From IMG/VR virus record IMGVR_UViG_3300031910_000005, positions 211 through 64,210 of that record: 64,000 nt of DNA, one strand, 5' to 3'. Positions 6,655-59,948 of the stretch are shown in pieces. The notes beneath the pieces were generated by a model. It made no database searches and had not been told where the DNA came from. It saw only the letters and a list, made by a program, of their open reading frames with translations. This stretch comes from a virus. Both the position numbers and the translations under genes were made by a program. How positions within the stretch are numbered: position 1 is the first letter of the stretch; every line of letters begins with the position of its first letter.

Positions 6655-8477
6655 CAGCCACCGCTCCCGCCGTTCGTGTTCACGGCCGCAGTTTCGAGCG
6701 CACCGAGGATCGCGCCCGCAGCTCCCCCGAGCGCCGCCGTTGCGCCGCCGGCGACGGCGACCGCGACGATCTCGCCTGCGGTGGTGCTCACGCCGTCGGG
6801 GACCATGCGCGCTTCGTAGTAGTTCTGGAAGTCGAAGTCGATGTCCAGCGCCTCGGCTGCGGTCCAGGTGTACTTCACCGTGGACACGCGGAACGCGCGC
6901 TGCGTGGGGGCGCTCTGCCCGCGCGAGGTTGCGACGATCACCTCGGCCAGCCGTCGGTCGCCGATGCGCGAGGCGATCTCGTTGACCTGTGCCTCGAACG
7001 GTGTGCGGTAGTGGTCGGTCACAGTGGACACGAGGGGCTGGCGCGCCCGCAGCTCCCGCACGTCGGTGTAGAACTCCACCGCGTCTCCGGGCTGCAACCG
7101 CAGCAGGTCAGGGTCAGAGTTGTCGCCGCCGAGCGACGCCAGGTTCCGCGTGCTCGCGTTGCCCGTGAACTCGAGCCGGGCGATCTGCTCGTACAGGTTG
7201 CGCGCGATCTCCTGCAACCGTCCCTGGTCATGGATGCCTGGCACGGGCAGCGTGAGGATCTCCTCCTGCGACTGCTGCCCGCCCGGAGCAGTGCGGTTGC
7301 GGCGCGCGGCTGCGGGTGCAGTCGGCATCGGCCACTGCGCCTGAATCACGTTGTCCAGGCCGCGATGCAGCGCCGTGACCGATACGCAGCGCACGGTCTT
7401 CGGCTTCGCGTATCCGCCGAACTTGCGGCTGAAGTGCAGCTTCTGGATGTCGCGCCCGTAGACGAGACGGCGCACGTTGAACGTGGTGTTCGTGCCTGGA
7501 ACGGTGCGCGGCTGCCCGTTCGCGAACGGCGTGCGCACGGTCGGGTCGAAGCCCGCGCGCGACTGATCGAAGATCGACCGCGCGGGACGGATCACGAGCG
7601 CGGTGCCACGGAAGTACGGGATCGCCCCGACGACATAGCAGAGCTGCACGATCAGATCCCAGAAGCTCATGTTGTTCGAGTCGCCCGGAAGCGACGCACG
7701 CCCGCCCGCGCGCTGCCCGCGTGCCCCACGACGATGGCGCGGGACCAGGTCCGCTGCGCTCGGCGCAGGGACAGTCTCGTTGGGCCACTCGGCAGGGTTC
7801 GTCTCGACGCTGAACTGGCCGAAGAGCAGGTTGTAGCTGAGGAGCTGCTTCACGACCGTGTTGATCGGCTGCGAGAGATCGAGCTGATCGAGGATCGTGG
7901 CGAGCACCCCGGGGGCGACGCCGATCGGTGTGTCCAGCAACGGAGCGCGCATATCGCGTCCGATGAGCGAGACCTCGGCACCGCGGTCCGCCTCATCCAC
8001 GTCCCACTGGTCGACGTAGGCGACCATCACGAGCGTGTCCTGGCGCGGGTTGCCGTTCGCATCGCGCGTGCGGAGTGTGGACGCGCGCGAGCCGTCGCGT
8101 TCCGAGCGCACCATGCCCCGGGCGAAGTCTGCGTGGCTGACCGACCCGAGATGGATCTCGACGGCGCACGCCTGCACCGTCCGCGGGTCGATGGGCAGGT
8201 CGCGAAAGTCGAACGTCGCGTTGAACGTGCCCGCCTGACGATACCCGGGGAGCTCCACGGACAGGTGCTTCGGCTGGCGCGAGTAGATGAACGACGCCTG
8301 CTGCGAAGCGCGTTGCAGCATTGCCGGCTCCTGCGTCGGCTGTCCGCTGGCACCGTCCTTCGGGACCCTGACGTTGTTGTCGACAGTGTCCGGTGGCGGC
8401 GGGTTCGCGTTCGGATTCAGGCTCTCGTCGAAGTAGAGCTTGAAGTTGACCGCGCACGCTGGTCGGAAGGTCGGCAT
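6654..8477 (-). CDS. Baseplate hub protein (gpD/Mu gp44-like)
   Basis: 607 aa; VSLIGRDMRAPLLD and RLQPGDAVEF motifs; synteny. Confidence 0.7.
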   Translation of the reverse strand: MPTFRPACAVNFKLYFDESLNPNANPPPPDTVDNNVRVPKDGASGQPTQEPAMLQRASQQASFIYSRQPKHLSVELPGYRQAGTFNATFDFRDLPIDPRTVQACAVEIHLGSVSHADFARGMVRSERDGSRASTLRTRDANGNPRQDTLVMVAYVDQWDVDEADRGAEVSLIGRDMRAPLLDTPIGVAPGVLATILDQLDLSQPINTVVKQLLSYNLLFGQFSVETNPAEWPNETVPAPSAADLVPRHRRGARGQRAGGRASLPGDSNNMSFWDLIVQLCYVVGAIPYFRGTALVIRPARSIFDQSRAGFDPTVRTPFANGQPRTVPGTNTTFNVRRLVYGRDIQKLHFSRKFGGYAKPKTVRCVSVTALHRGLDNVIQAQWPMPTAPAAARRNRTAPGGQQSQEEILTLPVPGIHDQGRLQEIARNLYEQIARLEFTGNASTRNLASLGGDNSDPDLLRLQPGDAVEFYTDVRELRARQPLVSTVTDHYRTPFEAQVNEIASRIGDRRLAEVIVATSRGQSAPTQRAFRVSTVKYTWTAAEALDIDFDFQNYYEARMVPDGVSTTAGEIVAVAVAGGATAALGGAAGAILGALETAAVNTNGGSGG

Positions 8478-9601
8478 CAGGTCGCCCCCGACGTGAGTCT
8501 CGGCACGAGCACGAGCTGACCGCGCGACAGCCGTGTCCCCGAGAGTTCATTGAACACGAGCAGTGGGCGCCACTGCAGACGCGAGCCGTAGAAGCGCTCC
8601 GCCACCGTGCGCAGGTCATCTCCTTCGCGCGCCGCATACACCCCGATGAGCTGGCTCTGGAGCGTGCGCGCGAGGGCAGCGCGCCGGGCAGCGGCCGTGC
8701 GTGCAAGCGTGCGCGCAGCACGGCGCGAGGTCGCAGCGTACGCTTCCGCGGCCACGACCTTGCCCAGCGGCAACGCTGCAATAGACCCCACAGCGGGGTC
8801 GCCTCCGCTCACGAGAGCGCGGGGTGGCTGCGCGTCGAAGGTCGCTGCAACACCGCCCGCGGTCGCGACCACGTTGTTCGTGGCTGCGAACACGCGACGT
8901 GCGGAATCGGGCGGCGTGGTGACGCCGGTGTACTGGACAGCGACGGCGTTCGCAGCGTCCTTCACTGCGTCCGCGATCGACGCGAGGCCCTCGAGCAGCT
9001 CGGTGTTGAACTTCTGCGGCACCGGCATCGGCGCCTTCATCGCTGCGTTCTGCAGCTCGTTGTTCTGCCCCGTCATCAGCGCGCTGGTGTCGGCTGCGGA
9101 GTTCACCTGATCGAGCACTGCGGGAGCGGTGTGCTCGCCGAGCGAGATCCACTCGAACTCCATCGTCCATGCGCAGTCCTTCAGGTTGTGCCACTCCTGA
9201 CGGAACTTCGTGAGGTAGCCGCGGCGCGTGATCTCGTTCCAGGTGACTTCGATCTCCTGCCCCTGGCGACGGATGTCGTCCATGAGCTTCACCGCAGCCA
9301 TCGTGGTCGTGATCTGGTCACCGTTGACCACGAAGGGCGCCGTGTTCCCGACGTTCGGGCCGGAGAGATACATCTCCTTCCAGAAGCCGTTGATCGACGT
9401 CGTACCCTCGCTCGCGCCCAGTACGGTGCCGGTGCCCTCCGGGTTGCCCGGGTTCCACGTGATCTCGACGCGCTGGTTGCCCTCGAGCGAGAACGGCCGG
9501 TACGGCAGCGCGCGCCCTGCGAGTGTGACGAAGCGCTCGAGCCCGGTGAGCTCCCGGATCTCGAAGACTGCGGCTGTGAGGATGTTGACGTCCGTGGTCA
9601 T
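8477..9601 (-). CDS. Tail tube initiator with C-terminal LysM-like domain
   Basis: 374 aa; C-terminal AREGDDLRTVAERFYGSRLQWRPLLVFNEL...LSRGQLVLVP; follows tape measure. Confidence 0.75.
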   Translation of the reverse strand: MTTDVNILTAAVFEIRELTGLERFVTLAGRALPYRPFSLEGNQRVEITWNPGNPEGTGTVLGASEGTTSINGFWKEMYLSGPNVGNTAPFVVNGDQITTTMAAVKLMDDIRRQGQEIEVTWNEITRRGYLTKFRQEWHNLKDCAWTMEFEWISLGEHTAPAVLDQVNSAADTSALMTGQNNELQNAAMKAPMPVPQKFNTELLEGLASIADAVKDAANAVAVQYTGVTTPPDSARRVFAATNNVVATAGGVAATFDAQPPRALVSGGDPAVGSIAALPLGKVVAAEAYAATSRRAARTLARTAAARRAALARTLQSQLIGVYAAREGDDLRTVAERFYGSRLQWRPLLVFNELSGTRLSRGQLVLVPRLTSGAT

Positions 9602-12739: not shown

Positions 12740-14788
12740 CTACCGGCGGTTCGTGATGACGACGCCGGCGCCGATGCTCGTCTGAAGGACGAAGTTCTTC
12801 TGCGACTGGAGCAGCGTGACCTGGACCACGAAGACCGTGATGCCGGCCGCTGTGAGGTCCGCCGTCTGCGCGCTCGTCGGATCGACCGCGTAGTCCACGA
12901 TGCGCTGCTGGGCCGGGTTGTTCGGCGACTTCAGCCCTTCGAGGAACGCGACGATCTCGCCGAACTCGGTCTCGATGAGCTGCGTCGTCTGATTGAGCTT
13001 CGAGTACGGCTTCATCGCGATCGCGATGCTGTCCTCGATGTAGTCGGCCATGCGGTCGCCCGCGATGTCGACTTCGCTCGAGACGAGGGACGTGGTGACG
13101 CCCGACTCGATCTCCGGCTGGTTCGTTCCCGGGTCGATGAACAGCGCGGCCACACCCGCTGCCTTCAGCGCGATGTAGTCGTTCATCTGCAGGTCGGGGA
13201 TGCCGCGACCGTAACCCGTGACCGAAGCGAGCAGCGTCGGCACCGGCGGTGCCGTCTGGCCCGGGTTGTTCTCGGGCGGCAGGTTGGACTCGAGCGACGC
13301 GAGCCACTCGTCGAACGGCGTGTCGAGCGTGCCGTCGAGCACCGTGCTGCCGTCCGCGCCGGTGAGCGCGAAGCCGACCGCCTCGGGGATCGTCGTGGTG
13401 CAGTAGGGCCACGAGTAGTCGATGTGCTCGCTGCGGTTCGCGCCGACGCCAGGCTCGGTGTTCACGATGACCGAGCTCGTCGCCTGCACACCGAGATCCG
13501 GCGCGCAGATACCGCGGCGCGTGAGACCGGCCGCGCGTGCTGCGAGCACGTGCGCCTTGATCTTCTCGCGGATCGTGGCGCGCTTGCGCGACGCGAGCAC
13601 GATCTTGATGCCGTTCGCCGGTGCCTTCTGCGAGAGCATCGCGTCGATCGCCGCCGTGTAGCGCGCGTCGAGCTGTGCGGTGCCGGCGCCGTTGTTCACA
13701 TGGATGTTCGCGTCGTAGACGACGGAGTGGTTGCCAGCACCGTCACCGGTCGTCGGCGAGGTCATGCCCGTCAGGCCCGACAGCGGGTCCCACGCCGTGG
13801 CCGTGTCCGTCGACGGCACGACCGAGGGCGTGAGCGACGTGCTGATCGCGATGCTCGCGTCGATCGGGCGCACAGGCACGCTGAACCCGGACGCGGTTGC
13901 GATGGCGACGTGCTGCGAGCTGACCGCGCCCGCAGTGTCCGCCGTCGCTGCAACGTGGATGCGGTACGGCAGGTTGGTCGTCGGCGAGTTCGTCCAGTTG
14001 AAGTTCGAGCCGTCGAGCATCTCGAGTTCGAGGTGCGTGGCGTCGGTGACTGCCTGCACGCGGTAGGTGCCTGCGTTCGAGCCGAGCCCCAGCGCACCGC
14101 CGATGACGCCGAGGACGACGATGTCACCGACCTTCACGCCGTTCGCGATGAAGTTGCCGCCAGCCGACAGGAAGGTCTGGTGTGCAGCCGGACCACCGCC
14201 TGCCGTCACGCTGCCATCGACACCGGAGAGGTACGCCGCCTGCCCGCCGAATGAGAACGCGGACGCAACGCGCACGCGATGCCCGCCACCGTCGACGAAC
14301 TGGCGACCTGCGGCGACCGTCGCAGCCTGCACCGGGACGATGGGCTGGGGGATCGTCGCGCTCTGGTTGGTCGGGAGGTGACGCCAGAAGCGCACGCCGT
14401 ACGACGACTGCCCTGCAGTCGCGGGCGTGATGTTGTCGACCGGCACGCACACCAGGCCAGCGAACGCCTTGTTGCGGAGCGAGACGAAGCCGTTGCCCAT
14501 CTCGCCGCCGAAGTTGCCGAGCAGCTCGTCGAAGCCTCCGAGCTTGTTCTGCACGTCCTGCGGCACGATGATCTGCACCGCGCGCGGGTTCGAGCTGATC
14601 TGCCCCGTCGTCGCGCTCACCTTCACCGCGTACGTGGCGTCGGCGAACTCGCCGGCGAGTCCGACGGTGCCCTGCTGGACACCGTTGATCGGCGACGGCG
14701 GCGGGAGCCGAACGATGACCGGCCCCTCGATCTGCGAGATCACATCGTTGCCCGGGTAGTACCCGTCGTAGCGTCGCACGAAAGACAT
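12740..14788 (-). CDS. Contractile tail sheath protein
   Basis: 682 aa; N-terminal YPG..VI..IE, C-terminal RMADYIEDSI...EIVAFLEGL...FVVQVTL typical of sheath. Confidence 0.9.
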   Translation of the reverse strand: MSFVRRYDGYYPGNDVISQIEGPVIVRLPPPSPINGVQQGTVGLAGEFADATYAVKVSATTGQISSNPRAVQIIVPQDVQNKLGGFDELLGNFGGEMGNGFVSLRNKAFAGLVCVPVDNITPATAGQSSYGVRFWRHLPTNQSATIPQPIVPVQAATVAAGRQFVDGGGHRVRVASAFSFGGQAAYLSGVDGSVTAGGGPAAHQTFLSAGGNFIANGVKVGDIVVLGVIGGALGLGSNAGTYRVQAVTDATHLELEMLDGSNFNWTNSPTTNLPYRIHVAATADTAGAVSSQHVAIATASGFSVPVRPIDASIAISTSLTPSVVPSTDTATAWDPLSGLTGMTSPTTGDGAGNHSVVYDANIHVNNGAGTAQLDARYTAAIDAMLSQKAPANGIKIVLASRKRATIREKIKAHVLAARAAGLTRRGICAPDLGVQATSSVIVNTEPGVGANRSEHIDYSWPYCTTTIPEAVGFALTGADGSTVLDGTLDTPFDEWLASLESNLPPENNPGQTAPPVPTLLASVTGYGRGIPDLQMNDYIALKAAGVAALFIDPGTNQPEIESGVTTSLVSSEVDIAGDRMADYIEDSIAIAMKPYSKLNQTTQLIETEFGEIVAFLEGLKSPNNPAQQRIVDYAVDPTSAQTADLTAAGITVFVVQVTLLQSQKNFVLQTSIGAGVVITNRR

Positions 14789-50980: not shown

Positions 50981-52090
50981 CTACTTCTGGAGGTATGCGA
51001 GGGTGCGGGTGAGGACGTTCGTGCGATCGACGCTGGCGTCCAGCTCCATCGAGCCGACGTACGCACGCACCGCGCCCTCCCATCCACCTGTGCTCGCGAC
51101 GACGGTCTGGATCTGCGCACGCGCTGCTTCGTCCGCTGCCTTGTCGTCGAGCGCGGGATCGACTCCTGCGAGGCCGAGGTTGACCTCCATGTCCTGGAGC
51201 ATGCGGGTCGCCGATCCGACGAGCGACGGCCCCACCTTCCAGCGTGCGTACAGGAGCGTCGGAATACACTGCTCGGCACACTTGCGGATGTACTGGTCGC
51301 CGCCGGGGCCGGTCGCCATCACGAAGCGCGGGCCGGGGATCTCGACGCGCTCCCATGTGTTCGCTTCGGTGTCGACGAGGATGAGCGATCCGTACCCTTC
51401 GAGCCCAGGGTTGTCGTAGCCCGTCGGCACGAGCGCACCGCACTGGATGATCGTGCGACCGTTGCGCTCCCAGCTCTTGTGATCGTGCCAGTTGCCGGCG
51501 ACCGCCCACTTGATGTCGTGCTTGTCCATCAGGTCGAAGAGCGTGTCAGCCTCGATGCTGTCGTGCGCACCGAGCATCCACGCAGGGGTGCCGGCGTCCG
51601 CGATGCCCATGTGGAGCACGAGCACGTTGGGCTTCCCTGCGATCGCCTCCAGCTCGGTCGGGAGCCACTCGCGCGCGTCCCCTGTGCGGTACGGCATCAG
51701 CAGGATCGACACCTCTGCGCCTGCGCTGATGATCGCAGGACCGTCGAACGCGCCGACGTCCGCGTCCATGCGGTCGATGGGGCCGAGCGCGTCATCGTCC
51801 TCGCTCATCGACACGGTGTCGTGGTTGCCGCGGATGATCGCGATGTTCAGCTCGCGCCCGCGCAGCACGTCCATCGTCTTGGAGATCACCTGCGGCTCCG
51901 GGCGCACGTTGTCGAACAGGTCGCCGCACACCACGAAGCCGTCGCAGTTCGCGTCCTCTGCGGCGCTGAGCGCAGAGCCCAACGTGTCCAGGATTGCGCG
52001 GCATCGGTGGTTCAATCCGACGTGCATCGCGCCGCCGTGCTTCCGGTGGTTCGCGATGTGCACGTCCGCTACGAATGCGATCTTCGCCAT
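50981..52090 (-). CDS. Mre11/SbcD (gp47-like) nuclease
   Basis: ADVH, GDLFD, GNHD, GNWH metallophosphoesterase motifs. Confidence 0.92.
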   Translation of the reverse strand: MAKIAFVADVHIANHRKHGGAMHVGLNHRCRAILDTLGSALSAAEDANCDGFVVCGDLFDNVRPEPQVISKTMDVLRGRELNIAIIRGNHDTVSMSEDDDALGPIDRMDADVGAFDGPAIISAGAEVSILLMPYRTGDAREWLPTELEAIAGKPNVLVLHMGIADAGTPAWMLGAHDSIEADTLFDLMDKHDIKWAVAGNWHDHKSWERNGRTIIQCGALVPTGYDNPGLEGYGSLILVDTEANTWERVEIPGPRFVMATGPGGDQYIRKCAEQCIPTLLYARWKVGPSLVGSATRMLQDMEVNLGLAGVDPALDDKAADEAARAQIQTVVASTGGWEGAVRAYVGSMELDASVDRTNVLTRTLAYLQK

Positions 52091-52091
52091 G

Positions 52092-52352
52092 TCACTGCTC
52101 CTTCTCCAGCATCCTCAACGTCGTGAGAGCATCCTCGATCTCACGGTACGTCTTGCCCTGCTTCTGCAACTGCATGCCGTGAGCACGCAGGCCACGGACG
52201 TCATCGTCGGAAGCCGTGCGCCGCCCGAGTGCACCGTCGACCGTGCTCGCGAACATGAGTTTGTGCACGACTGTTTCGATTCGCCCGCGCGCCACCTTCA
52301 GCTTCTTGCGACGACGGTCACGCCGCGCGTGCGACCTATTCTTCTTCCCCAC
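52092..52352 (-). CDS. Small basic hypothetical protein
   Basis: 86 aa from GTG; start uncertain. Confidence 0.45.
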   Translation of the reverse strand: MGKKNRSHARRDRRRKKLKVARGRIETVVHKLMFASTVDGALGRRTASDDDVRGLRAHGMQLQKQGKTYREIEDALTTLRMLEKEQ

Positions 52353-53313
52353 TGGCCTTTGCCTCCGCGCTCGACACAACGCCGCCCCAGCCGAGTGAGA
52401 CGAGCGCAGCCTGGTGAGCCTTGTCGCCCTTCGCTCCGCGTCCTGCCTTGCCGACCTTCTTCGCGTGCTCCAGCGTGCTCCACTCGTTGTTCCATCCCGT
52501 GTCGTAGTCGAGACGGATGCGGGCTTTGCGGAACGGCGGAGAGAAGCGCGTCTTCGCAGTGACGAGCGTGACGATCTTGCCGGTGTGCTCGTCAGCCTTG
52601 TTCTTGATGGCCTTGCCGCCGAAGAGCTGCAACCGGAGCGAGGCGTAGAACTTCACCGCCTTGCCGCCGGGCGTGATCGTGTTGGGGCCGAACATCACAC
52701 CGAAGTTCGCGCGCACCTGATTCAGCGCGAGCAGATGTGCACGGTGCTTCGCGAGCAGCGGGATGAGCTTCTTCAGCTCCGCGCTCATCAGCATGCTCTG
52801 CAACGCGGGTGCACGGTCGCCTGCCTCCTTGCCGAGCTCCACCTTCGGCGTCATCGCTGCGATCGTGTCCCACACGAGCAGCAGGGGGCCGCGCTTCGCA
52901 TTGTGCGACGTGAGCAGGAGCTTCGACTGCTCGAGCGCCATCTCCATCGTCTCGGGCTGCACGATGATGAGGTTGTCGATGTCGACGCCGTACACCTTCG
53001 CGCGGTCTTCGTCGAAGCTGTACTCGACATCGACGACGACGCACGTCGCTCCGTGTTGCTGCGCGGACGCGATGCACTGCCACGAGAGCGCTGTCTTGCC
53101 TGCGCCCTCCTCACCGCTCAGCTCACTCATGCGGCCGACAGGGAGCCCGCCGATCCCGATGCTGTAATGGTCGATGATCTCGACGCCGGTCGGGATGACC
53201 TCCTTCACCTGTGCCGCTGCCTCGCGTCCGCTGCCGAGCCGCAGTGCACTCGTGGTCCCGAACTTCTTCTGCAAGAGCTTCACGGTCTGATCGAGCACGG
53301 TCTTGTTCGACAT
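52336..53313 (-). CDS. recA: RecA/UvsX recombinase
   Basis: 325 aa; IPTG...GGLPVGRMSELSGEEGAGKT, TPGGKAVKFYASLRL. Confidence 0.93.
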   Translation of the reverse strand: MSNKTVLDQTVKLLQKKFGTTSALRLGSGREAAAQVKEVIPTGVEIIDHYSIGIGGLPVGRMSELSGEEGAGKTALSWQCIASAQQHGATCVVVDVEYSFDEDRAKVYGVDIDNLIIVQPETMEMALEQSKLLLTSHNAKRGPLLLVWDTIAAMTPKVELGKEAGDRAPALQSMLMSAELKKLIPLLAKHRAHLLALNQVRANFGVMFGPNTITPGGKAVKFYASLRLQLFGGKAIKNKADEHTGKIVTLVTAKTRFSPPFRKARIRLDYDTGWNNEWSTLEHAKKVGKAGRGAKGDKAHQAALVSLGWGGVVSSAEAKASGEEE

Positions 53314-53564
53314 CACATCTTCTCCAGAAGCAGAAGCGCGTGCTCCCGCTCCAACTGTTCGGCACGTCCGGGAACACCTTTGTGCCGAAGCCAGCGTGCG
53401 ATGGCTCCGACGTCGTTCATGTGCACGCGAGCTTCGCGCGTGCGCGGGTGGCGCTTCTGCACGAACAGCGGAGCAGGCATCGCGCATCCGCTCACACCGA
53501 GGATCTCGCGCGCTTCGTTGAACGAGAGCGCGCCATACTTCAGGAACTGTCGAAGCGTACGCAT
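53313..53564 (-). CDS. Small HTH-like protein
   Basis: 83 aa MRTLRQFLKYGALSFNEAREILGVS; TGATG overlap with recA. Confidence 0.55.
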   Translation of the reverse strand: MRTLRQFLKYGALSFNEAREILGVSGCAMPAPLFVQKRHPRTREARVHMNDVGAIARWLRHKGVPGRAEQLEREHALLLLEKM

Positions 53565-53662
53565 AGTGGACGCCGATGGAGTTGAACCATCGCCCTGCAT
53601 CTCGGTTGCCGACGTAGCCGCGGGCGGCGGCAGTCGAGAGAGGCAGTACACCGTTCGCGCCC
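53564..53662 (-). ncRNA. tmRNA tRNA-like-domain / tRNA-Ala mimic without tag ORF
   Basis: Acceptor GGGCGC/GCGTCC with G3-U, discriminator A, T-arm GATGG-TTCAACT-CCATC, no D-stem, long irregular helix. Confidence 0.55.
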
Positions 53663-53792
53663 ATAAACCCCCAGCCCCGGAGAGGGTGAGTCTCCGGGGT
53701 TGTCCACGCCTGGGGGAGCCGCGCAGGTGACCGTGCGTGCAAGGGAGCAGCAACGCTCGCATCGCGACGGCCGGGACACTGAGACCTTACAT

Positions 53793-54602
53793 CTACAGGT
53801 CGTCGTCGTCCACGTCCGCAGTGCTGTCGTACACCTTGCCGGCGGCACCTTCGCCCACGTCGTACTCACCGCCGCCCGTCTGCGGCTTCGGCTGTGGGCG
53901 ACGCCCTGCGAGCATCTCCTGGATGTCGTGGTCGCTCGGGACAGCGGCGAGCGATTCGAGGTTGTGCATCTGCTGGAGCAGCTCGGTCATCTCCGCGTTG
54001 TCGGGGAGCAGCGGACTCGGTCCCTTCGGGTCCACGGCCACGCTGTAGCGCGTGTTCTTCTTCTCGCCCGTGCGGATGATGATGAGGTCGTAGCCGTTCA
54101 CGGGGTGCGTGAAGTTGAGGCCGAGGCCCTCGTCCGGGTCACGAATCTCGATGAGCTTCTTGTGGATCATCGTGCCGAACTTCCAGACCTTCCAACCCTC
54201 CTCCGGCGCAGCGCGCTGGAACACGTTGGCGAAGAGCTGACGCTGCGGGAGCAGGTTCTCGCCGCGCTTCTGATCGACGGGGTTGTTCGACGCCTGCATC
54301 TGCTTCGCCTTCGTGCACACACGGCAGGGGAGCTTCGCTTCCATGCGCGGGCAGACGAACGCGACGGAGTTGTCCAGCCCGGGGACGTCGACGTAGTGCA
54401 TCCACACGGGACGCCAGGGCGTCTTCGTGCCGGGGCGCGGCGGTCCCATGCGCAGCACAGTCTTGCCCTGCGGGAGCGCGCCGAGGTTCTTCGACTTGCT
54501 CGACTTCTTCGAGTCCTCGCGATCCTGCTGGAGCGCGTCGAGATCGAAGTCTTCGTACAGTGCGAGGCTGGTGTTGGTGTTCTTGGTCGGTTGCTTTGCC
54601 AT
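53793..54602 (-). CDS. Single-stranded DNA-binding protein (gp32-like)
   Basis: TVLRMGPP...HYV...CP....CRVC, GYDLIIIRTG, acidic tail. Confidence 0.85.
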   Translation of the reverse strand: MAKQPTKNTNTSLALYEDFDLDALQQDREDSKKSSKSKNLGALPQGKTVLRMGPPRPGTKTPWRPVWMHYVDVPGLDNSVAFVCPRMEAKLPCRVCTKAKQMQASNNPVDQKRGENLLPQRQLFANVFQRAAPEEGWKVWKFGTMIHKKLIEIRDPDEGLGLNFTHPVNGYDLIIIRTGEKKNTRYSVAVDPKGPSPLLPDNAEMTELLQQMHNLESLAAVPSDHDIQEMLAGRRPQPKPQTGGGEYDVGEGAAGKVYDSTADVDDDDL

Positions 54603-54635: not shown

Positions 54636-55097
54636 TCAGCCGTGAATGTGTGCGTCGCGCATCTCGTTGCGGAGACGCGGGTTACCGTCCATCTCCTTGC
54701 GGACGGTGGCGCCGAGCGAGATCAGCATGTCCTTCTTCGCGATGATGGAGTCGACGACGCCGCGCGACTTCAGGCGCTCGACCTCTGCGTCGATCTTCGC
54801 GATGCGTGCTGCGATGTACTTCTGGTCGGTCTGCACGCGCTCCTTCACCGCACCCTCGGTGACCTTGCTGCCCTCGTCGGCGAGGCGCTCGCGCCACTCG
54901 ATGTGGAGCGCCGCTTCGGTGCGATCGAGTTCGAGGTCCGCTTCGAGGTAGTTCTCGTGCGCGAGGGCGTACTTCGCGTTCCAGTGCGCGAGATCGGCCG
55001 AGAGCCGCACGAACTCCTCGTGCAGGTTCGTCGGGTCGATGTGCGTTGCGCGGGTGCTGTACTCGTCGGGTTCGATGTCGTTGGTGTCCATGTTCAT
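54636..55097 (-). CDS. UvsY-like recombination mediator
   Basis: 153 aa coiled coil; VTEGAVKERVQTD..Y; next to SSB and RecA. Confidence 0.65.
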   Translation of the reverse strand: MNMDTNDIEPDEYSTRATHIDPTNLHEEFVRLSADLAHWNAKYALAHENYLEADLELDRTEAALHIEWRERLADEGSKVTEGAVKERVQTDQKYIAARIAKIDAEVERLKSRGVVDSIIAKKDMLISLGATVRKEMDGNPRLRNEMRDAHIHG

Positions 55098-55137
55098 CCT
55101 CGTGTGAGTAGGTTGTGCGGTTGGAGTTGAATTCTGC

Positions 55138-58100
55138 TCAGTCCTTCACTTCGATCATCGAGCCCCAGGAACGACCGTACTTGAAGTCGACCTTCAGCGG
55201 TACGCCGCCTGAGTACCAGCCGGACATTACCTGTCCCATGATCGCGATGGACTCGGCGACCTGATCGTCGCGAACCTTGGCCATGATGGAGTCGTGCACC
55301 GTCAGCACCACTGTCGCGTCCAGTCCTTCGTCGTCGAAGCGCTGCTGGATCGGGTCGAGCGAGCGCGTTGCGTAGTGCGCCGCAGTGCCCTGCACGGGGG
55401 TGTTCCCGGTGATGAACACGTGGCCTGAACGGCGCACCACGAAGAACGTGTTTGGCACAATCGGACACCACACTGATGCCTTTGCACGGTACGAGCGCCA
55501 GTGATGCCACATCACCTGTGCCTTGTCGCGCTTGAGCACGGTGACCGCCCACACGCCTGTCATGCGCGGCACATTGCGTAGGTGGCGCGACTTCGGCTTG
55601 TACTTCGACATGTCGCGCCACTTGAGTGAGGACGCCTTACCAGCAGCAACACACAACGCTTGAAAGGCGTCCGCAGTCGCTTCCGACCGCGTTATAAACA
55701 CAAGCTTGCCGCCGCTACGGCTGCCATCACCGTCTATCATTGTGTCAAGGAGCAACTGGGCCTGCGCACCGTCCAATGACGCGACGAACTCGTGCGTGAG
55801 TTCTCGTGTTGGAAACAAGCGCACAAGGTCCTGCTCACGCCAATCCCAGTGCACGAGCTGATCGCGTTGAACGACGCGGCGCGTTGCGATTGGGCGTTCA
55901 CGTTGTAGCAGCGCGTCGATGCGCGCGACCTTCTGCGGATTCGCACGTGCGCTCTGGCACAAACCGACAGCGCGACCTGGCTTCGGTTGTGGGCCACGTA
56001 AGCCCTTACGCCCTGTCACGCGCCGAGTTTGTTTGATGTACCCATCGGTGAGGAACCATCCGGCCAACTCAACAAAGTCATTCCCATATGTAGCCGTGTT
56101 CGACCACAGACCTGTGCGGTGGATACGGTCGTCGCCGTGCTTTGAAATAGTTGCCGACGTGCGCACAACGTTGGCGCGTAGGGACTTGTTGAATGTGAGC
56201 CAGCGGTGATCCGGTGTCGTCACTGCGTGAAACGATGCGGATCGAAACTCGTACAAGTCGCCCACATAGTCAGGCCACAACTTGAGATCCGTCGGTAGCT
56301 GCCACTCCAACACCCCTGTCGCTGGGTTCTTCGTAAGTAGCTCGTCCTGCATTGTAAGCTCGAACCCCCGCACCCACCCACGACGAGTCAGCGCCTCGGT
56401 TTCGTCGTCTAGGCAGTTCCACGCCGCGTTGCTCGCGTTGCGCAGACGCCCGCGCGATTCGTCCGCGCCGCTCTCACCGATCATCGGAAGCGGACGCCAG
56501 TTCGCAGGCTGTCCGTCGAGGTAGACGAACACGCCGCCGTGCTTGCGTGCTGCGGCGACGGTGTTGTCGATCGTCTGCTTCAGCTTGCGGAACTTGCCGA
56601 AGACGAGCGCGACGAACTTCTCCGCATCGCGCGTCGGGATGCCGAGCGTCTTGCCGAGCTTGAACGCAGGCTCCAGGTCGTAGTTGACCTGGAAGTTCAT
56701 CGACTTCGCAGCGCGTCGATACTGCTTCTTGAGCTCCGGTGTGAGGGCGTCCCAGTCCGTCACGTTCCACGCGACCGGCGCGACGAGCTGCGCAGTGCGT
56801 TCGTGGAAGTCGTGCCCGGAGAGGAACATCTCGATCATCACCGGGTCCTGCGAGAGCATCGCAGCGATGCGAAGTTCGAGCTGCGAGTAGTCCGCTTCGA
56901 CCAGCATGTAGCCGGGCGGTGCGATGAAGATGTCGCGGCTCATCTTCCCGAGCACCGGATCGCGGTCCGGCGAGGGGATGTTCTGCAGGTTCGGGTTCTT
57001 CGACGACATGCGGCCGGTGTTATGGGTGACGACCCCGCCGGTCACGTGACTGTGGTCGATGTCGACAGTCGCGCCGTAGGTGGGCTCCGCCGCTTCACGT
57101 TGGACGCTGACGACACTGACTTCGAAGAAGTCTGCACGCGCACCGACGATGTGCTCTTCCGACTGCCAGCGCTTCCCGCTGCGGATGTCACGGATCGTTT
57201 CACGGGCAACGCCATACTTCTGAGCGAGCTTGCTGTCCGACACACCTATCTTGGACCAGCGGCCACCGCCACCAGCGGTAGGGCGCGACGTCGCGCGAAT
57301 CTCAGCAACGATCTCCTCCGAGAGCTTCAGTTGCGGGTGTCGCATTCGGCGCTTCGAGAGCGTGCCGTGCCGCGATGCGTCTCGGTGGTTCTCGGAACTC
57401 GTGCCGTACTTCAGGTTCCCGGCAGTGTTATCCCACGCAATGCCGTTCATGTGACGAACGTGCACCTGCTTCTTCCCGATGCAAAACGCGCCGGCCACGA
57501 GACGATGGACACCAAAGTCCTTCCGATCACCAGTACCGCGCGTCTGCGCACCGTTTCGGTGCAGGCACACCTTCAAGTGCCCCCATCTCCCCTTCGGCTG
57601 GAGAGCGAGAACGTTCCCCGTGCGCTTGTTCCGCACGCGCCCCCAGGACGATACCTCGAATGCGGTCCAGCCCTTCACATGGCGCCACTGCTCGGGAAGT
57701 GAATGCGCGAGAACGAGCTCACCCTTCACGAGTGCGTCGGCGCGCTTCCACTCACCATCAGGGCGCAGGTACTTGTGGTCTGCCGTCGTGCGCAGCTCGA
57801 GCCCGTTGCTGAGTGTTACGCGGTAGATCTCGCTTGGCGCGTTCACACACGTCGCAATCACAAGCCGTGGCACGCCTGTGTGCGCAATGACCTGATCGCC
57901 AACACGCACCTTCTCGGCTGGGATGTACCCGCGATTTGTGAGCACGAGTTCGCCTGCTGGAAGGCACCCTGCACCGTCGAGGAGGAACGTCGTGTGGATG
58001 CGGCCGTCGTCGCGGATGTACGCACGCGCTCCGCGCCCGTTCGTGCTCTGCACCTTCACCAGGTGTCGGTACTCGAGCAGCGAGGCGATGATCGGATGCT

Positions 58101-59694
58101 GCCCTTCGAGCTCATGCAGCACCTCCGCGTCCGTGCTGTTGCCGTCGATGCGGGGCAGGCGCAGCTTGCCGAAGAGCAGCTCGCTGAGCTGCTTCGGTGA
58201 GTCGTAGTTGATGTCGCCGTACACCTTGAGTTGTGCTTCGAGCGGCTGGATCTTGGAGTCCAGGTACTGCTCGAACATATCGAGCGCGATGCGGTCCACG
58301 TGCACGCCTTCGCGCTCGATCCGAACGAGCGCCTGCATCGCAGGGAGCGTCACCTTCTCCCAGACGTTCACGAGGTTCTTCTTCGCCATCAGTCGCGGGG
58401 TGTACTGGGCGTCGAGCAGATCCGTCGAAGCCGCGTCGCGCGCGTTGTACCGAACGCGCACGGTCGGATTCATGAAGCGGTATGCGTACTGGATCGTCTT
58501 CGCGCGTCCAGCACGGAGCTTCTGCAACACCTCTTCGGGGACGTGCTCGCGCTGGACGTACTTGGGCTCGTAGGGCTTGCGCGGCTTGCCCGACTTCAGC
58601 GGCTTCTGCAGCGGTTCGCCGGCGAGCTTCGCGAGGTCCTTCTTGATGAGCTCGAGCGCGTCCTGCGCTTCGCCTTTGTGCCCACCCATGCCGACGGTCT
58701 CGGCTGCGTTCTCCAGGTCCGCACCGACCTCGCCGTCGAGCAGCTTGCGGGACAGGCGCGTGTCGCGCTTCATGCGGCGCGACGTGTCGATGCCGAACTC
58801 GAGCAGCACGGCGATCGTGTCGTACTTCAGGTTGTGCCCGACGGTGTCGACGTTCTCGAGAATCGAGACAAGCACCTTGCGGTGCTTCGGGTTCTCGATC
58901 GCGTCGCGGTCCCAGGTGAAGCCGTGGTCGCTGCCCGCTGCCCACAGCGTGATCGTCTCGATGCGGAAGTCTTTGTCGAACACCACGCCCGAGGTCTCAG
59001 TGTCGTAGATGACCTCGCCTCGCAGCTCCGCCATCGCTGCCGCTGCCGTCGCACCGTCGTGCACCGTCACCGTGTAGCGCCCGACCATCGTCGGCTCCGG
59101 GACAGGCGCAGTCAGTGCCCACGCGAGATCGTCCTCGAACTGCTTCGCGATGAAGCGGTTGGTCAGCGCGAACTTCGGCAGCGGCATCACGTACACAGGA
59201 ACGAACGACTCCGGGTCCGGGTACGTCTCCTCGTCGATCCACCATCCGTAGCCGCGCCGCAGCTCGTGCACAGGCGGACGACGACCGAGGATGGACTCCG
59301 CTGCGTCCGGCCCGACTGCGATGATGCGCGTCGGTCGAACCTCGCGCAGAAGCTGTGCGGTGTACGGCCGGCACGCATCAATGTGCGACTGCTCGGTGAG
59401 CGAGCCTGGACACCGGACCGCGTTGTCGTACGCGATGGCGTGCTTCCAGTGCTTCGTGATCCGGCTGCGGAGATACTTCCCCATCTGGCTCGTGAAGGGC
59501 CGTCCGATGTTGTCGTCGTCGCGCGTCGCGGCGCCGAACAGCACGTAGAGCCCGCCGGGCTTGCCCTCCGCCTGCAGACAGACGTTGCGAGTGCCTTCGT
59601 GCCGCTCGCACCGCGTGCAGGACGAGTCGCGAGCGCGCTCGGTCTCCCAGCCGACGACCGCCTGGGGAGCTTGCGGATAGAGCGGCAGTCTCAC
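55138..59694 (-). CDS. polA: Family A DNA polymerase with N-terminal UDG-like domain and 3'-5' exonuclease, two inteins
   Basis: CTRC..., YDTETSG, HNLKYD, TGRMSS.NPNLQNIP, ADYSQLELR, VHDS; GTG start at 59694 preferred. Confidence 0.92.
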   Translation of the reverse strand: MRLPLYPQAPQAVVGWETERARDSSCTRCERHEGTRNVCLQAEGKPGGLYVLFGAATRDDDNIGRPFTSQMGKYLRSRITKHWKHAIAYDNAVRCPGSLTEQSHIDACRPYTAQLLREVRPTRIIAVGPDAAESILGRRPPVHELRRGYGWWIDEETYPDPESFVPVYVMPLPKFALTNRFIAKQFEDDLAWALTAPVPEPTMVGRYTVTVHDGATAAAAMAELRGEVIYDTETSGVVFDKDFRIETITLWAAGSDHGFTWDRDAIENPKHRKVLVSILENVDTVGHNLKYDTIAVLLEFGIDTSRRMKRDTRLSRKLLDGEVGADLENAAETVGMGGHKGEAQDALELIKKDLAKLAGEPLQKPLKSGKPRKPYEPKYVQREHVPEEVLQKLRAGRAKTIQYAYRFMNPTVRVRYNARDAASTDLLDAQYTPRLMAKKNLVNVWEKVTLPAMQALVRIEREGVHVDRIALDMFEQYLDSKIQPLEAQLKVYGDINYDSPKQLSELLFGKLRLPRIDGNSTDAEVLHELEGQHPIIASLLEYRHLVKVQSTNGRGARAYIRDDGRIHTTFLLDGAGCLPAGELVLTNRGYIPAEKVRVGDQVIAHTGVPRLVIATCVNAPSEIYRVTLSNGLELRTTADHKYLRPDGEWKRADALVKGELVLAHSLPEQWRHVKGWTAFEVSSWGRVRNKRTGNVLALQPKGRWGHLKVCLHRNGAQTRGTGDRKDFGVHRLVAGAFCIGKKQVHVRHMNGIAWDNTAGNLKYGTSSENHRDASRHGTLSKRRMRHPQLKLSEEIVAEIRATSRPTAGGGGRWSKIGVSDSKLAQKYGVARETIRDIRSGKRWQSEEHIVGARADFFEVSVVSVQREAAEPTYGATVDIDHSHVTGGVVTHNTGRMSSKNPNLQNIPSPDRDPVLGKMSRDIFIAPPGYMLVEADYSQLELRIAAMLSQDPVMIEMFLSGHDFHERTAQLVAPVAWNVTDWDALTPELKKQYRRAAKSMNFQVNYDLEPAFKLGKTLGIPTRDAEKFVALVFGKFRKLKQTIDNTVAAARKHGGVFVYLDGQPANWRPLPMIGESGADESRGRLRNASNAAWNCLDDETEALTRRGWVRGFELTMQDELLTKNPATGVLEWQLPTDLKLWPDYVGDLYEFRSASFHAVTTPDHRWLTFNKSLRANVVRTSATISKHGDDRIHRTGLWSNTATYGNDFVELAGWFLTDGYIKQTRRVTGRKGLRGPQPKPGRAVGLCQSARANPQKVARIDALLQRERPIATRRVVQRDQLVHWDWREQDLVRLFPTRELTHEFVASLDGAQAQLLLDTMIDGDGSRSGGKLVFITRSEATADAFQALCVAAGKASSLKWRDMSKYKPKSRHLRNVPRMTGVWAVTVLKRDKAQVMWHHWRSYRAKASVWCPIVPNTFFVVRRSGHVFITGNTPVQGTAAHYATRSLDPIQQRFDDEGLDATVVLTVHDSIMAKVRDDQVAESIAIMGQVMSGWYSGGVPLKVDFKYGRSWGSMIEVKD
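55402..56415 (-). mobile_element. Intein 2 in PolA (338 aa, LAGLIDADG-type)
   Basis: N|CLDDETEALTRRG...VFITGN|TPVQG; LAGWFLTDG and LLDTMIDGDGS. Confidence 0.9.
57019..57966 (-). mobile_element. Intein 1 in PolA (316 aa) carrying an HNH endonuclease
   Basis: G|CLPAGELVLTNRG...VVTHN|TGRM; internal EVSSWGRVRN...HRLVAGAF...HMNGIAWDNTAGNL. Confidence 0.9.
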
Positions 59695-59783
59695 TTCTTC
59701 CCTCCACCGAAGAAGCCGAGAATCACGATCCCGGCAACCAGCACCACTACGATCCCCAGGCTTGCATCTGGCCACGTCAGCAT
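59691..59783 (-). CDS. Small membrane peptide
   Basis: 30 aa MLTWPDASLGIVVVLVAGIVILGFFGGGKK with RBS GGAGGTG. Confidence 0.5.
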   Translation of the reverse strand: MLTWPDASLGIVVVLVAGIVILGFFGGGKK

Positions 59784-59948
59784 CACTCACCTCCACAAAC
59801 TGTCGGCGGCGCCGCACGGAGTCGCACCGTGCGCATCGACAGAGGTCCACCCGTTCGTCGCACCGGATTGCGACGATGTAACGAAACGGCACTGTCGATC
59901 ATGCTCTGCGCCATCAGTCCCGAATTGGCTGCTCGGAACCAGCAGGTG

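Follow-up and report, generated by a model that had tools for sequence, protein, structure and literature searches.

tRNA-like elements between genes

Where tRNA genes are co-transcribed with mRNAs, as in mitochondrial "tRNA punctuation", a tRNA lying between coding regions is excised, and the excision creates the ends of the flanking mRNAs, leaderless mRNAs included. Plant mitochondrial t-elements (PMC1920247; bioRxiv 10.1101/2024.09.09.612099) are described as non-canonical tRNA-like folds situated at gene borders within polycistronic RNA, with a T arm of the form GGTTCRANYCC, an acceptor-like closing stem and ends that coincide with mRNA ends. According to these accounts, cleavage by RNase P and RNase Z sets the 3' and 5' ends of the plant messages, and a t-element places the 5' end of rps4 at +2, giving an almost leaderless mRNA (PMC1920247). 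Reduced tmRNAs without the message part are described from jakobid mitochondria (PMC3590771). Such punctuation is known in organelles, and the literature search found no paper on t-element-like signals in phages.

The element presented here resembles the plant t-elements in its tRNA-like fold, in its placement at a gene border of a polycistronic RNA, in its GGTTCRANYCC T arm and in its closing stem. In contrast to those organellar elements, whose RNA ends have been mapped according to the sources cited above, it belongs to a bacteriophage operon and has a recognisable origin of tRNA-Ile type. Unlike a punctuating tRNA it can no longer decode, so that punctuation would be its sole role. With phage tRNA-Ile genes (GAU in L106, L115 and L119, UAU in L110; RF00005) it shares the T arm, the GGGCGCG strand, the C4-G69 pair, A73 and the AACGG(T)G motif, whereas these genes have G3-C70 and the element has G3-U70, no D stem and no anticodon loop. 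With the tRNA-like domain of tmRNA (RF00023; jakobid mt-tmRNA, RF02544) it has in common an acceptor with G3-U70 and A73, a stemless D loop, a long helix and the T arm; it differs in matching no tmRNA model, in lacking a message domain and an encoded CCA, and in its affinity to tRNA-Ile.

The locus and its genes

The window is a stretch of 64,000 nucleotides (positions 211 to 64,210 of the record IMGVR_UViG_3300031910_000005) of a soil virus contig in IMG/VR, which is 64,239 nt long, has 65% GC and is about 73% complete; its phage is called W below. The element is part of an operon for replication and recombination, with all genes in the same orientation on the minus strand. The order of genes on this strand is a UDG-fused, intein-bearing PolA (55138-59892), an ORF of 153 aa (54636-55097), a gp32-like single-stranded-DNA-binding protein (SSB), the element, an ORF of 83 aa, recA, and genes for Mre11-like and Rad50-like proteins. 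A frame of 175 aa listed on the same strand at 55094-55621, overlapping the 153-aa ORF, is unlikely to be a gene, its codon-position GC of 0.81/0.57/0.44 being of a non-coding kind; in identical contigs a 151-aa gene at 54636-55097 is called in place of that frame. In a relative (the contig behind P0010/P0024) the recA homologue, 492 aa long, contains an intein (PF14890), and the PolA of W is likewise intein-bearing.

The upstream neighbour of the element, the gp32-like SSB gene (53793-54602, minus strand), encodes 269 aa with an acidic C-terminal tail and matches Pfam PF08804 (gp32, E 1.2e-12). Past its stop codon there is a GC-rich hairpin of 9 bp, CCCCGGAGA/TCTCCGGGG, followed by CTGGGGGTTTA (53675-53699, minus strand). 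It was not called by a consensus terminator scan; its sequence suggests a terminator-like structure or one that stabilises the 3' end. Most lineages have a strong hairpin past the SSB stop, and L015, L021, L022, L024, L033 and L105 have one equivalent to that of W. A promoter scan gave no sigma-70-like promoter near the element.

The 83-aa ORF on the downstream side (53313-53564, minus strand) carries a helix-turn-helix-like motif. Its stop overlaps the start of recA (ATGTGATG), to which it is predicted to be translationally coupled. Its codon-position GC of 0.71/0.44/0.73 is coding-like, and that of the in-frame upstream extension is not. It is an orphan: a collection of 5.8 billion proteins contains no homologue, it falls into no Pfam or PHROG family, and a search for relatives with it returned only two AT-rich portal genes, which are unrelated. 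Related phages have either no ORF at this place or a different orphan, of 123 aa in L102 and of 155 aa in L010. The recA-type recombinase gene itself (52336-53313, minus strand) matches PF00154 with an E-value of 1.6e-61.

Structure of the element

The element occupies 53564-53663 on the minus strand and consists of an acceptor stem, a D-loop-like linker without a D stem, a long irregular hairpin, a T arm and a discriminator. The 5' acceptor strand GGGCGCG (53662-53656) is followed by the linker AACGGTGTA (53655-53647), a D-loop motif common to L105, L033 and the phage tRNA-Ile genes of L106 and L119. An irregular hairpin of 52 nt (53646-53595) stands where the anticodon arm would be, and no anticodon loop of 7 nt is formed. 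Then comes the T arm GATGG-TTCAACT-CCATC (53591-53575), in which GGTTCRANYCC takes the form GGTTCAACTCC, the 3' acceptor strand GGCGTCC (53574-53568) and the discriminator A73 (53567), after which only CT precedes the ATG of the 83-aa ORF (53564-53562). The sequence reported in the first-pass annotation was recovered base for base at 53662-53564 (minus strand, 99 nt, ending on the A of the next ATG), and the structural details listed there, namely G3-U70, G-G at pair 7, A73, the canonical T arm, the missing D stem and the long irregular helix, are all present. In the minimum-free-energy fold the register is displaced by one position (TGGGCGC, 53657-53663), so that seven clean acceptor pairs, TGGGCGC/GCGTCCA, start from T53663 and the T stem has six pairs.

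Taken alone, the element of W is barely above chance, with a fold z-score of -1.94 and about 2.5 sites per shuffled window for a loose acceptor/T-arm descriptor. It is regarded as more than chance because relatives conserve the same architecture in the same slot. The final covariance model (R3, described below) finds a single significant copy across the window, the element itself (49.2 bits, E 3e-6). Two further tRNA-like matches on the plus strand, at 51103-51180 and 13011-13142 (22 bits with E 0.2 in model R3, and a descriptor match, respectively), lie inside or antisense to coding sequence; as additional copies they were rejected as noise, being at chance level. In contigs from four soil DNA runs the element showed no sequence variation, and the sequencing runs listed for this DNA include no RNA run.

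Related elements in the same slot

Homology searches with the gp32-like protein and with RecA led to the relatives, whose syntenic loci come from soil metagenomes and IMG/VR. GenBank phages gave no DNA match to the locus, and with the RecA protein only distant relatives of less than 42% identity; metagenomes scanned with gp32 yielded only two short loci, both lacking the junction, and a genome scan one bacterial recA only. An element built of an acceptor stem and a T arm is found in the same slot in seven lineages (W, L004, L013, L021, L025, L030/32 and L031), all of them related high-GC soil phages with protein identities of 40-65% among the lineages. The slot follows the gp32-like SSB gene and its hairpin and lies directly before recA or before the small ORF that precedes recA. 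In each of the seven lineages the strand just 3' of the T-arm hairpin finds its pairing partner 34-72 nt upstream of the hairpin. The interiors, 26-64 nt long and unrelated between lineages, form one hairpin (W, L004) or two (L025, L030, L031).

Versions that are tRNA-like to a varying degree occur in L015/29, L033/34, L102 and L103, and some syntenic homologues are four-way cloverleaf-like forms without alanine identity. An N-CCA is encoded exactly 7 nt past the T stem in L015 and L033. In L033, as in the unrelated phage L105, an extra hairpin stands between the element and the next gene, an arrangement which looks more like that of a self-standing RNA gene. At the same junction a T arm is missing from L024, which has a plain long closing helix, and from L026-28, which have a hairpin sequestering the ribosome-binding site, and nothing comparable is present in L010, L016 and L104. 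As these relatives have the junction but no T arm, a tRNA-like signal is not a necessity.

Conservation and covariation

As MAFFT failed to align the 5' acceptor strands of divergent members, a manual register table and iterated covariance models were used. In the register table of the seven lineages, pairing holds for 48 of the 49 acceptor cells, with two to four pair types at each acceptor position, and for 34 of the 35 cells of the T stem. A 7/7 partner strand, expected by chance at 0.11 per site, is seen in six of the seven lineages. The seed model was built from W, L105 and three phage tRNA-Ile genes, with only the 12 pairs of the top half specified. Run with filters off, model R1 gave L103, L025 and L013 as its best non-seed matches, each at the expected coordinates. 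In model R2 the top three non-seed matches in 73 kb were L030, L031 and L033, at the syntenic site, and in model R3 L015 and L021 ranked third and fourth at noise-level E-values of 0.4-0.8. L004 and L102 were not recovered by models R1-R3, and since these and other divergent members escape the models, the limits of the family rest partly on the authors' own descriptor.

In an alignment of 11 sequences made by the model, 94.7% of cells pair, as against 63.7% in shuffles and 39-51% in slid controls, and double-sided changes affect 39 cells, as against 12.1 in shuffles; the alignment was fitted to the structure and these figures are biased in its favour. Pair 7 is unpaired in 5 of the 11 sequences, which is consistent with the alternative register. 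The first-pass annotation had made its reading depend on covariation of the acceptor and T arm in relatives, and both stems do covary strongly. By this comparison it is only the top half of the molecule, the acceptor stacked on the T arm together with a D-loop-like GG linker, that selection appears to keep.

Searches with tRNA and tmRNA models

In the element of W the acceptor stem stacks on a T arm whose loop is canonical; of the features of a canonical tRNA (RF00005) it lacks the D stem and the anticodon loop of 7 nt. ARAGORN, run for tRNA and tmRNA, makes no call on it apart from inconsistent ones at 80% thresholds, and the Rfam models of tRNA, tmRNA and mt-tmRNA give no match, neither at gathering thresholds nor, on a slice of 451 nt, at E<=10. 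The tmRNA covariance models RF00023, RF01849-51 and RF02544 do not recognise W, in which ARAGORN reports 0 tmRNA genes. There is no room for a message domain, since the interior is the single 52-nt hairpin; a resume codon and tag frame belong to all tmRNAs but the mt-tmRNA of jakobids. An origin as a known ribozyme or riboswitch was rejected, no Rfam match being found, and so was a fragment of an attP or integration site, as both acceptor strands are present and no integrase is nearby.

The relatives are seen only in part by the same programs. ARAGORN in its default mode calls the syntenic element of L025 a tRNA-Ile(gat) and that of L013 a tRNA-Ala(cgc); at 80% thresholds it frames nine of nine candidate elements with the same 3' end and with inconsistent anticodons, while the Rfam tRNA model reports none of the nine. 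L004 has a weak match to tRNA-Sec (23 bits, E 0.87). A tRNA-Sec-like identity (an 8+5 or 9/4 stack with a long variable arm and a UCA anticodon) was considered and rejected: the stack of L105 has 12 layers, no UCA loop is present and no recoding is visible in the ORFs. Thirteen stacked acceptor/T layers can be drawn in all seven syntenic elements and the next pair never forms, but with 12 in L105 this pattern is an observation and not a rule of the family. The elements would represent an uncatalogued family of structured RNA that is missed by tRNA finders and Rfam.

The first-pass annotation had described the element as a minimal form of the tmRNA tRNA-like domain and had offered a decoy of SmpB or alanyl-tRNA synthetase (AlaRS) among its possible functions. 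Neither finds support as a property of the family. No tmRNA model matches, and the features which looked tmRNA-like, i.e. the AACGG loop, the TTCAACT T arm and the GGGCGCG acceptor, are also those of ordinary phage tRNA-Ile genes. Alanine identity (G3-U70 with A73) is not conserved across homologues, being confined to W and L105; in the other syntenic lineages pair 3 is G-C, C-G or U-A, and A, C, U and G all occur as discriminator. It should be borne in mind that G3-U70 in one sequence is not evidence of a tmRNA or of an alanine mimic.

Origin from a tRNA-Ile gene

A pattern scan for the T arm of W led to ordinary phage tRNA genes and to L105. The T arm is identical at 17 of 17 positions to that of the tRNA-Ile(GAU) genes of L106 and L115, and that of L119 is identical or nearly so. 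The D loop of all three contains AACGG (GAACGGTGA in L106 and L115), and the tRNA-Ile(UAU) gene of L110 has the acceptor GGGCGCG/CGCGCCC and discriminator A. Judged by these likenesses, the element is a remnant of a phage tRNA gene of isoleucine type, and its AACGG motif is to be read as a tRNA-Ile-type D loop that lost its stem. The G3-U70 pair of W is a single C-to-U step away from the CGCGCCC strand of L110 and L013.

L105 is a sequence of 41 kb with 68% GC, from a phage unrelated to W. Its element reads GGGCGCG ... AACGGTG ... GATGGTTCGAGTCCATC CGCGTCC A, with G3-U70, A73 and a clean pair 7, and it is located directly 3' of two hairpins after an SSB gene of a different family (phrog_378). 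The top half is near-identical to that of W and the interior is unrelated, so that the two make up a sub-family which retains the alanine determinants. A scan for GGGCGCG-N(0-4)-AACGGTG gave at least 119 sites, and among the matches listed only L105 is tRNA-like.

Position relative to the neighbouring genes

Between the gp32 stop and the element lie about 130 nt in W and as many as 300-420 nt in L004 and L013. On the other side, the start codon follows the helix after 2-4 nt without a Shine-Dalgarno sequence in W (83-aa ORF), L030 and L031 (both recA); in W the ATG lies 2 nt past the discriminator. In L013, L021 and L025 it is the Shine-Dalgarno sequence that begins 2-3 nt past the helix, and in L004 a leader of 28 nt follows the element. 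A tRNA-like 3' end of the gp32 mRNA was rejected as an explanation, as the distance to gp32 varies and that to the next gene is fixed. Judging by this spacing, translation of the next cistron in W, L030 and L031 would scarcely be possible without a cut in the RNA immediately past the element.

Possible function

It is tentatively proposed, with a probability put somewhat below even but higher than that of any other reading, that the element is a t-element-like punctuation signal for RNase P and RNase Z which releases a near-leaderless mRNA. The first-pass annotation had included among its options a tRNA-like processing signal of this kind, releasing a near-leaderless message for the helix-turn-helix ORF and recA. 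This option fits the comparative data best, because only the acceptor/T half is conserved and covarying and because the 3' edge abuts the next Shine-Dalgarno sequence or start codon; the transcription, the cleavages and the leaderless translation which belong to it are predicted steps. The non-canonical tRNA-like fold, the GGTTCRANYCC motif, the closing acceptor-like stem, the covarying stems and the position between gp32 and the ORF or recA, co-oriented on one strand, are all features of the t-element type. The half which seems to be under selection is the part seen by RNase P, RNase Z and the CCA-adding enzyme, while the decoding half drifts, and the position of the element is linked to where the next cistron begins, which in three lineages would hardly be translatable uncut; both considerations favour a punctuation signal.

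The following course of events may be envisaged. The element would be transcribed within the polA...gp32...recA operon RNA and would fold to a tRNA-like shape recognised by host enzymes that process tRNA ends. A cut by RNase P on the 5' side would leave the gp32 mRNA ending just past its protective hairpin, and a cut by RNase Z or another 3' tRNA nuclease after the discriminator would give the downstream mRNA its 5' end. In W that mRNA would begin 1-2 nt ahead of the AUG of the 83-aa ORF and would be translated as a leaderless message. It is assumed here that the host possesses RNase Z and uses leaderless mRNAs. If the proposal is correct, phages share a mitochondrial trick, and a tRNA relic unable to decode is kept solely for cutting an operon RNA at a fixed point. 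The fate of the very abundant SSB message would be uncoupled from that of the recombination genes, with a leaderless mRNA formed in some lineages.

Not every property of these elements points to punctuation, and other readings have to be weighed. The excised element may itself be the product, a stable CCA-tailed small RNA of tRNA-like shape acting in trans, for instance as a decoy that occupies a host enzyme binding tRNA or a defence nuclease directed against tRNA. The N-CCA encoded by L015 and L033 and the hairpin past the element in L033 and L105, as expected of a separate RNA gene, agree with this, and so does the retention of G3-U70 and A73 by the unrelated phages W and L105 despite fully diverged interiors. 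Such a role is nevertheless considered unlikely, since pair 3 and the discriminator vary in the other syntenic lineages, so that no single amino-acid identity is conserved, and the lower half, which a decoy of an anticodon nuclease would need, is the least conserved part. The G-U pair shared by W and L105 may also stem from recent common descent with a single C-to-U change, and the plant t-elements to which the element is compared are described as not aminoacylated. AlaRS is able to charge acceptor/T minihelices bearing G3-U70. Under the trans-acting reading, W and L105, which both have G1-C72, G2-C71, G3-U70 and A73, could therefore provide an alanine-accepting minihelix. The fuller version, in which the top-half RNA of these two phages, having acquired G3-U70 on an acceptor of tRNA-Ile type, would be CCA-tailed, charged with alanine and active in trans on the translation or ribosome-rescue machinery of the host or on a tRNA-sensing defence, while its excision also makes a leaderless mRNA, is held to be a long shot; if it were true, one RNA would serve both as a punctuation mark in mRNA and as a charged tRNA mimic. 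The still more literal reading as a true minimal tmRNA, reduced to the tRNA-like domain as in jakobid mitochondria and working with or against SmpB rescue, takes up the real resemblance of the layout of W to that domain (the G3-U70 pair, A73, a missing D stem, a single long helix and the T arm), but it is scarcely credible in view of the empty ARAGORN tmRNA search, the silence of all Rfam tmRNA families including mt-tmRNA even at E<=10, the missing tag frame, the tRNA-Ile nature of the supposed tmRNA motifs and the cloverleaf-like syntenic homologues devoid of alanine identity.

Alternatively, the element might stay on the downstream mRNA and have a role in cis, whether as a structured 5' cap that protects the message from decay dependent on the 5' end or as a device of translational control. 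The relatives without a T arm, which still put a strong closed helix at the recA Shine-Dalgarno sequence (L024) or sequester it (L026-28), are consistent with a cis function, as is the Shine-Dalgarno sequence placed 2-3 nt past the helix in L013, L021 and L025. Yet in W, L030 and L031 an AUG 2-4 nt from a helix of 12-13 layers, with no Shine-Dalgarno sequence, would make loading of the 30S subunit difficult on uncut RNA, and a plain hairpin would suffice as a cap, while here the T loop and the acceptor geometry are conserved; a cis role is accordingly given a rather low probability. Lower still is that of a decaying tRNA-Ile pseudogene devoid of present function. Its clear tRNA-Ile-type ancestry, a degenerate lower half that differs between lineages and the loss of the element in some relatives are what would be seen in a pseudogene, but neutral decay should affect both halves, whereas the acceptor and T stems keep 95% pairing with compensatory changes beside interiors that are unalignable, and the position at the start of the next gene is kept across protein identities of 40-65%.

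Other structured RNAs in related loci

Several related loci contain other structures in or near the spacer. In the recA leaders of L026 (1100-1200), L027 and L028 a long hairpin, TCATGGCCT/AGGCCATGA, sequesters the GGAGG Shine-Dalgarno sequence and the recA ATG, and a conserved structured stretch common to L026 and L028 lies upstream of it. The closing helix of L024 (1341-1463) has 15 bp, CGCTCTGCACCATAT / ATATGGTGCAGAGCG, and belongs to a structure of about 120 nt which has no T loop and ends at the recA Shine-Dalgarno sequence. L022 (1400-1500) and L023 keep a W-like 5' part (GGGGCGAACGGC) without the T arm, and this stretch may be a degenerate form of the element. In the gp32-recA spacers of L013 (985-1060) and L014 (1500-1545), which are 400-500 nt long, a GC-rich motif GCGGGCGC..CCGGCGC..ACAACCTCGGG.GCAC is conserved, which suggests that a further structured RNA precedes the tRNA-like element.

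L103 possesses a near-canonical tRNA (205-283) with a normal D arm, a T arm close to that of W and an anticodon loop of 6 nt, designated "tRNA-???" by ARAGORN; it lies 1.2 kb upstream of recA, before an orphan ORF of 164 aa. The element of L114 (3812-3931), which receives no ARAGORN call, is 120 nt long and has a perfect acceptor CAGCGCG/CGCGCTG, discriminator A and two internal hairpins resembling T arms. Acceptor/T-arm minihelices of about 52 nt are found in L112 and in L108, a phage of 92 kb with 46% GC that carries two of them on the minus strand (7616-7667 and 9074-9126). One of the L108 minihelices starts just past a stop codon, has G-G at pair 7 as in W and is followed on its 3' side by AT-rich sequence.
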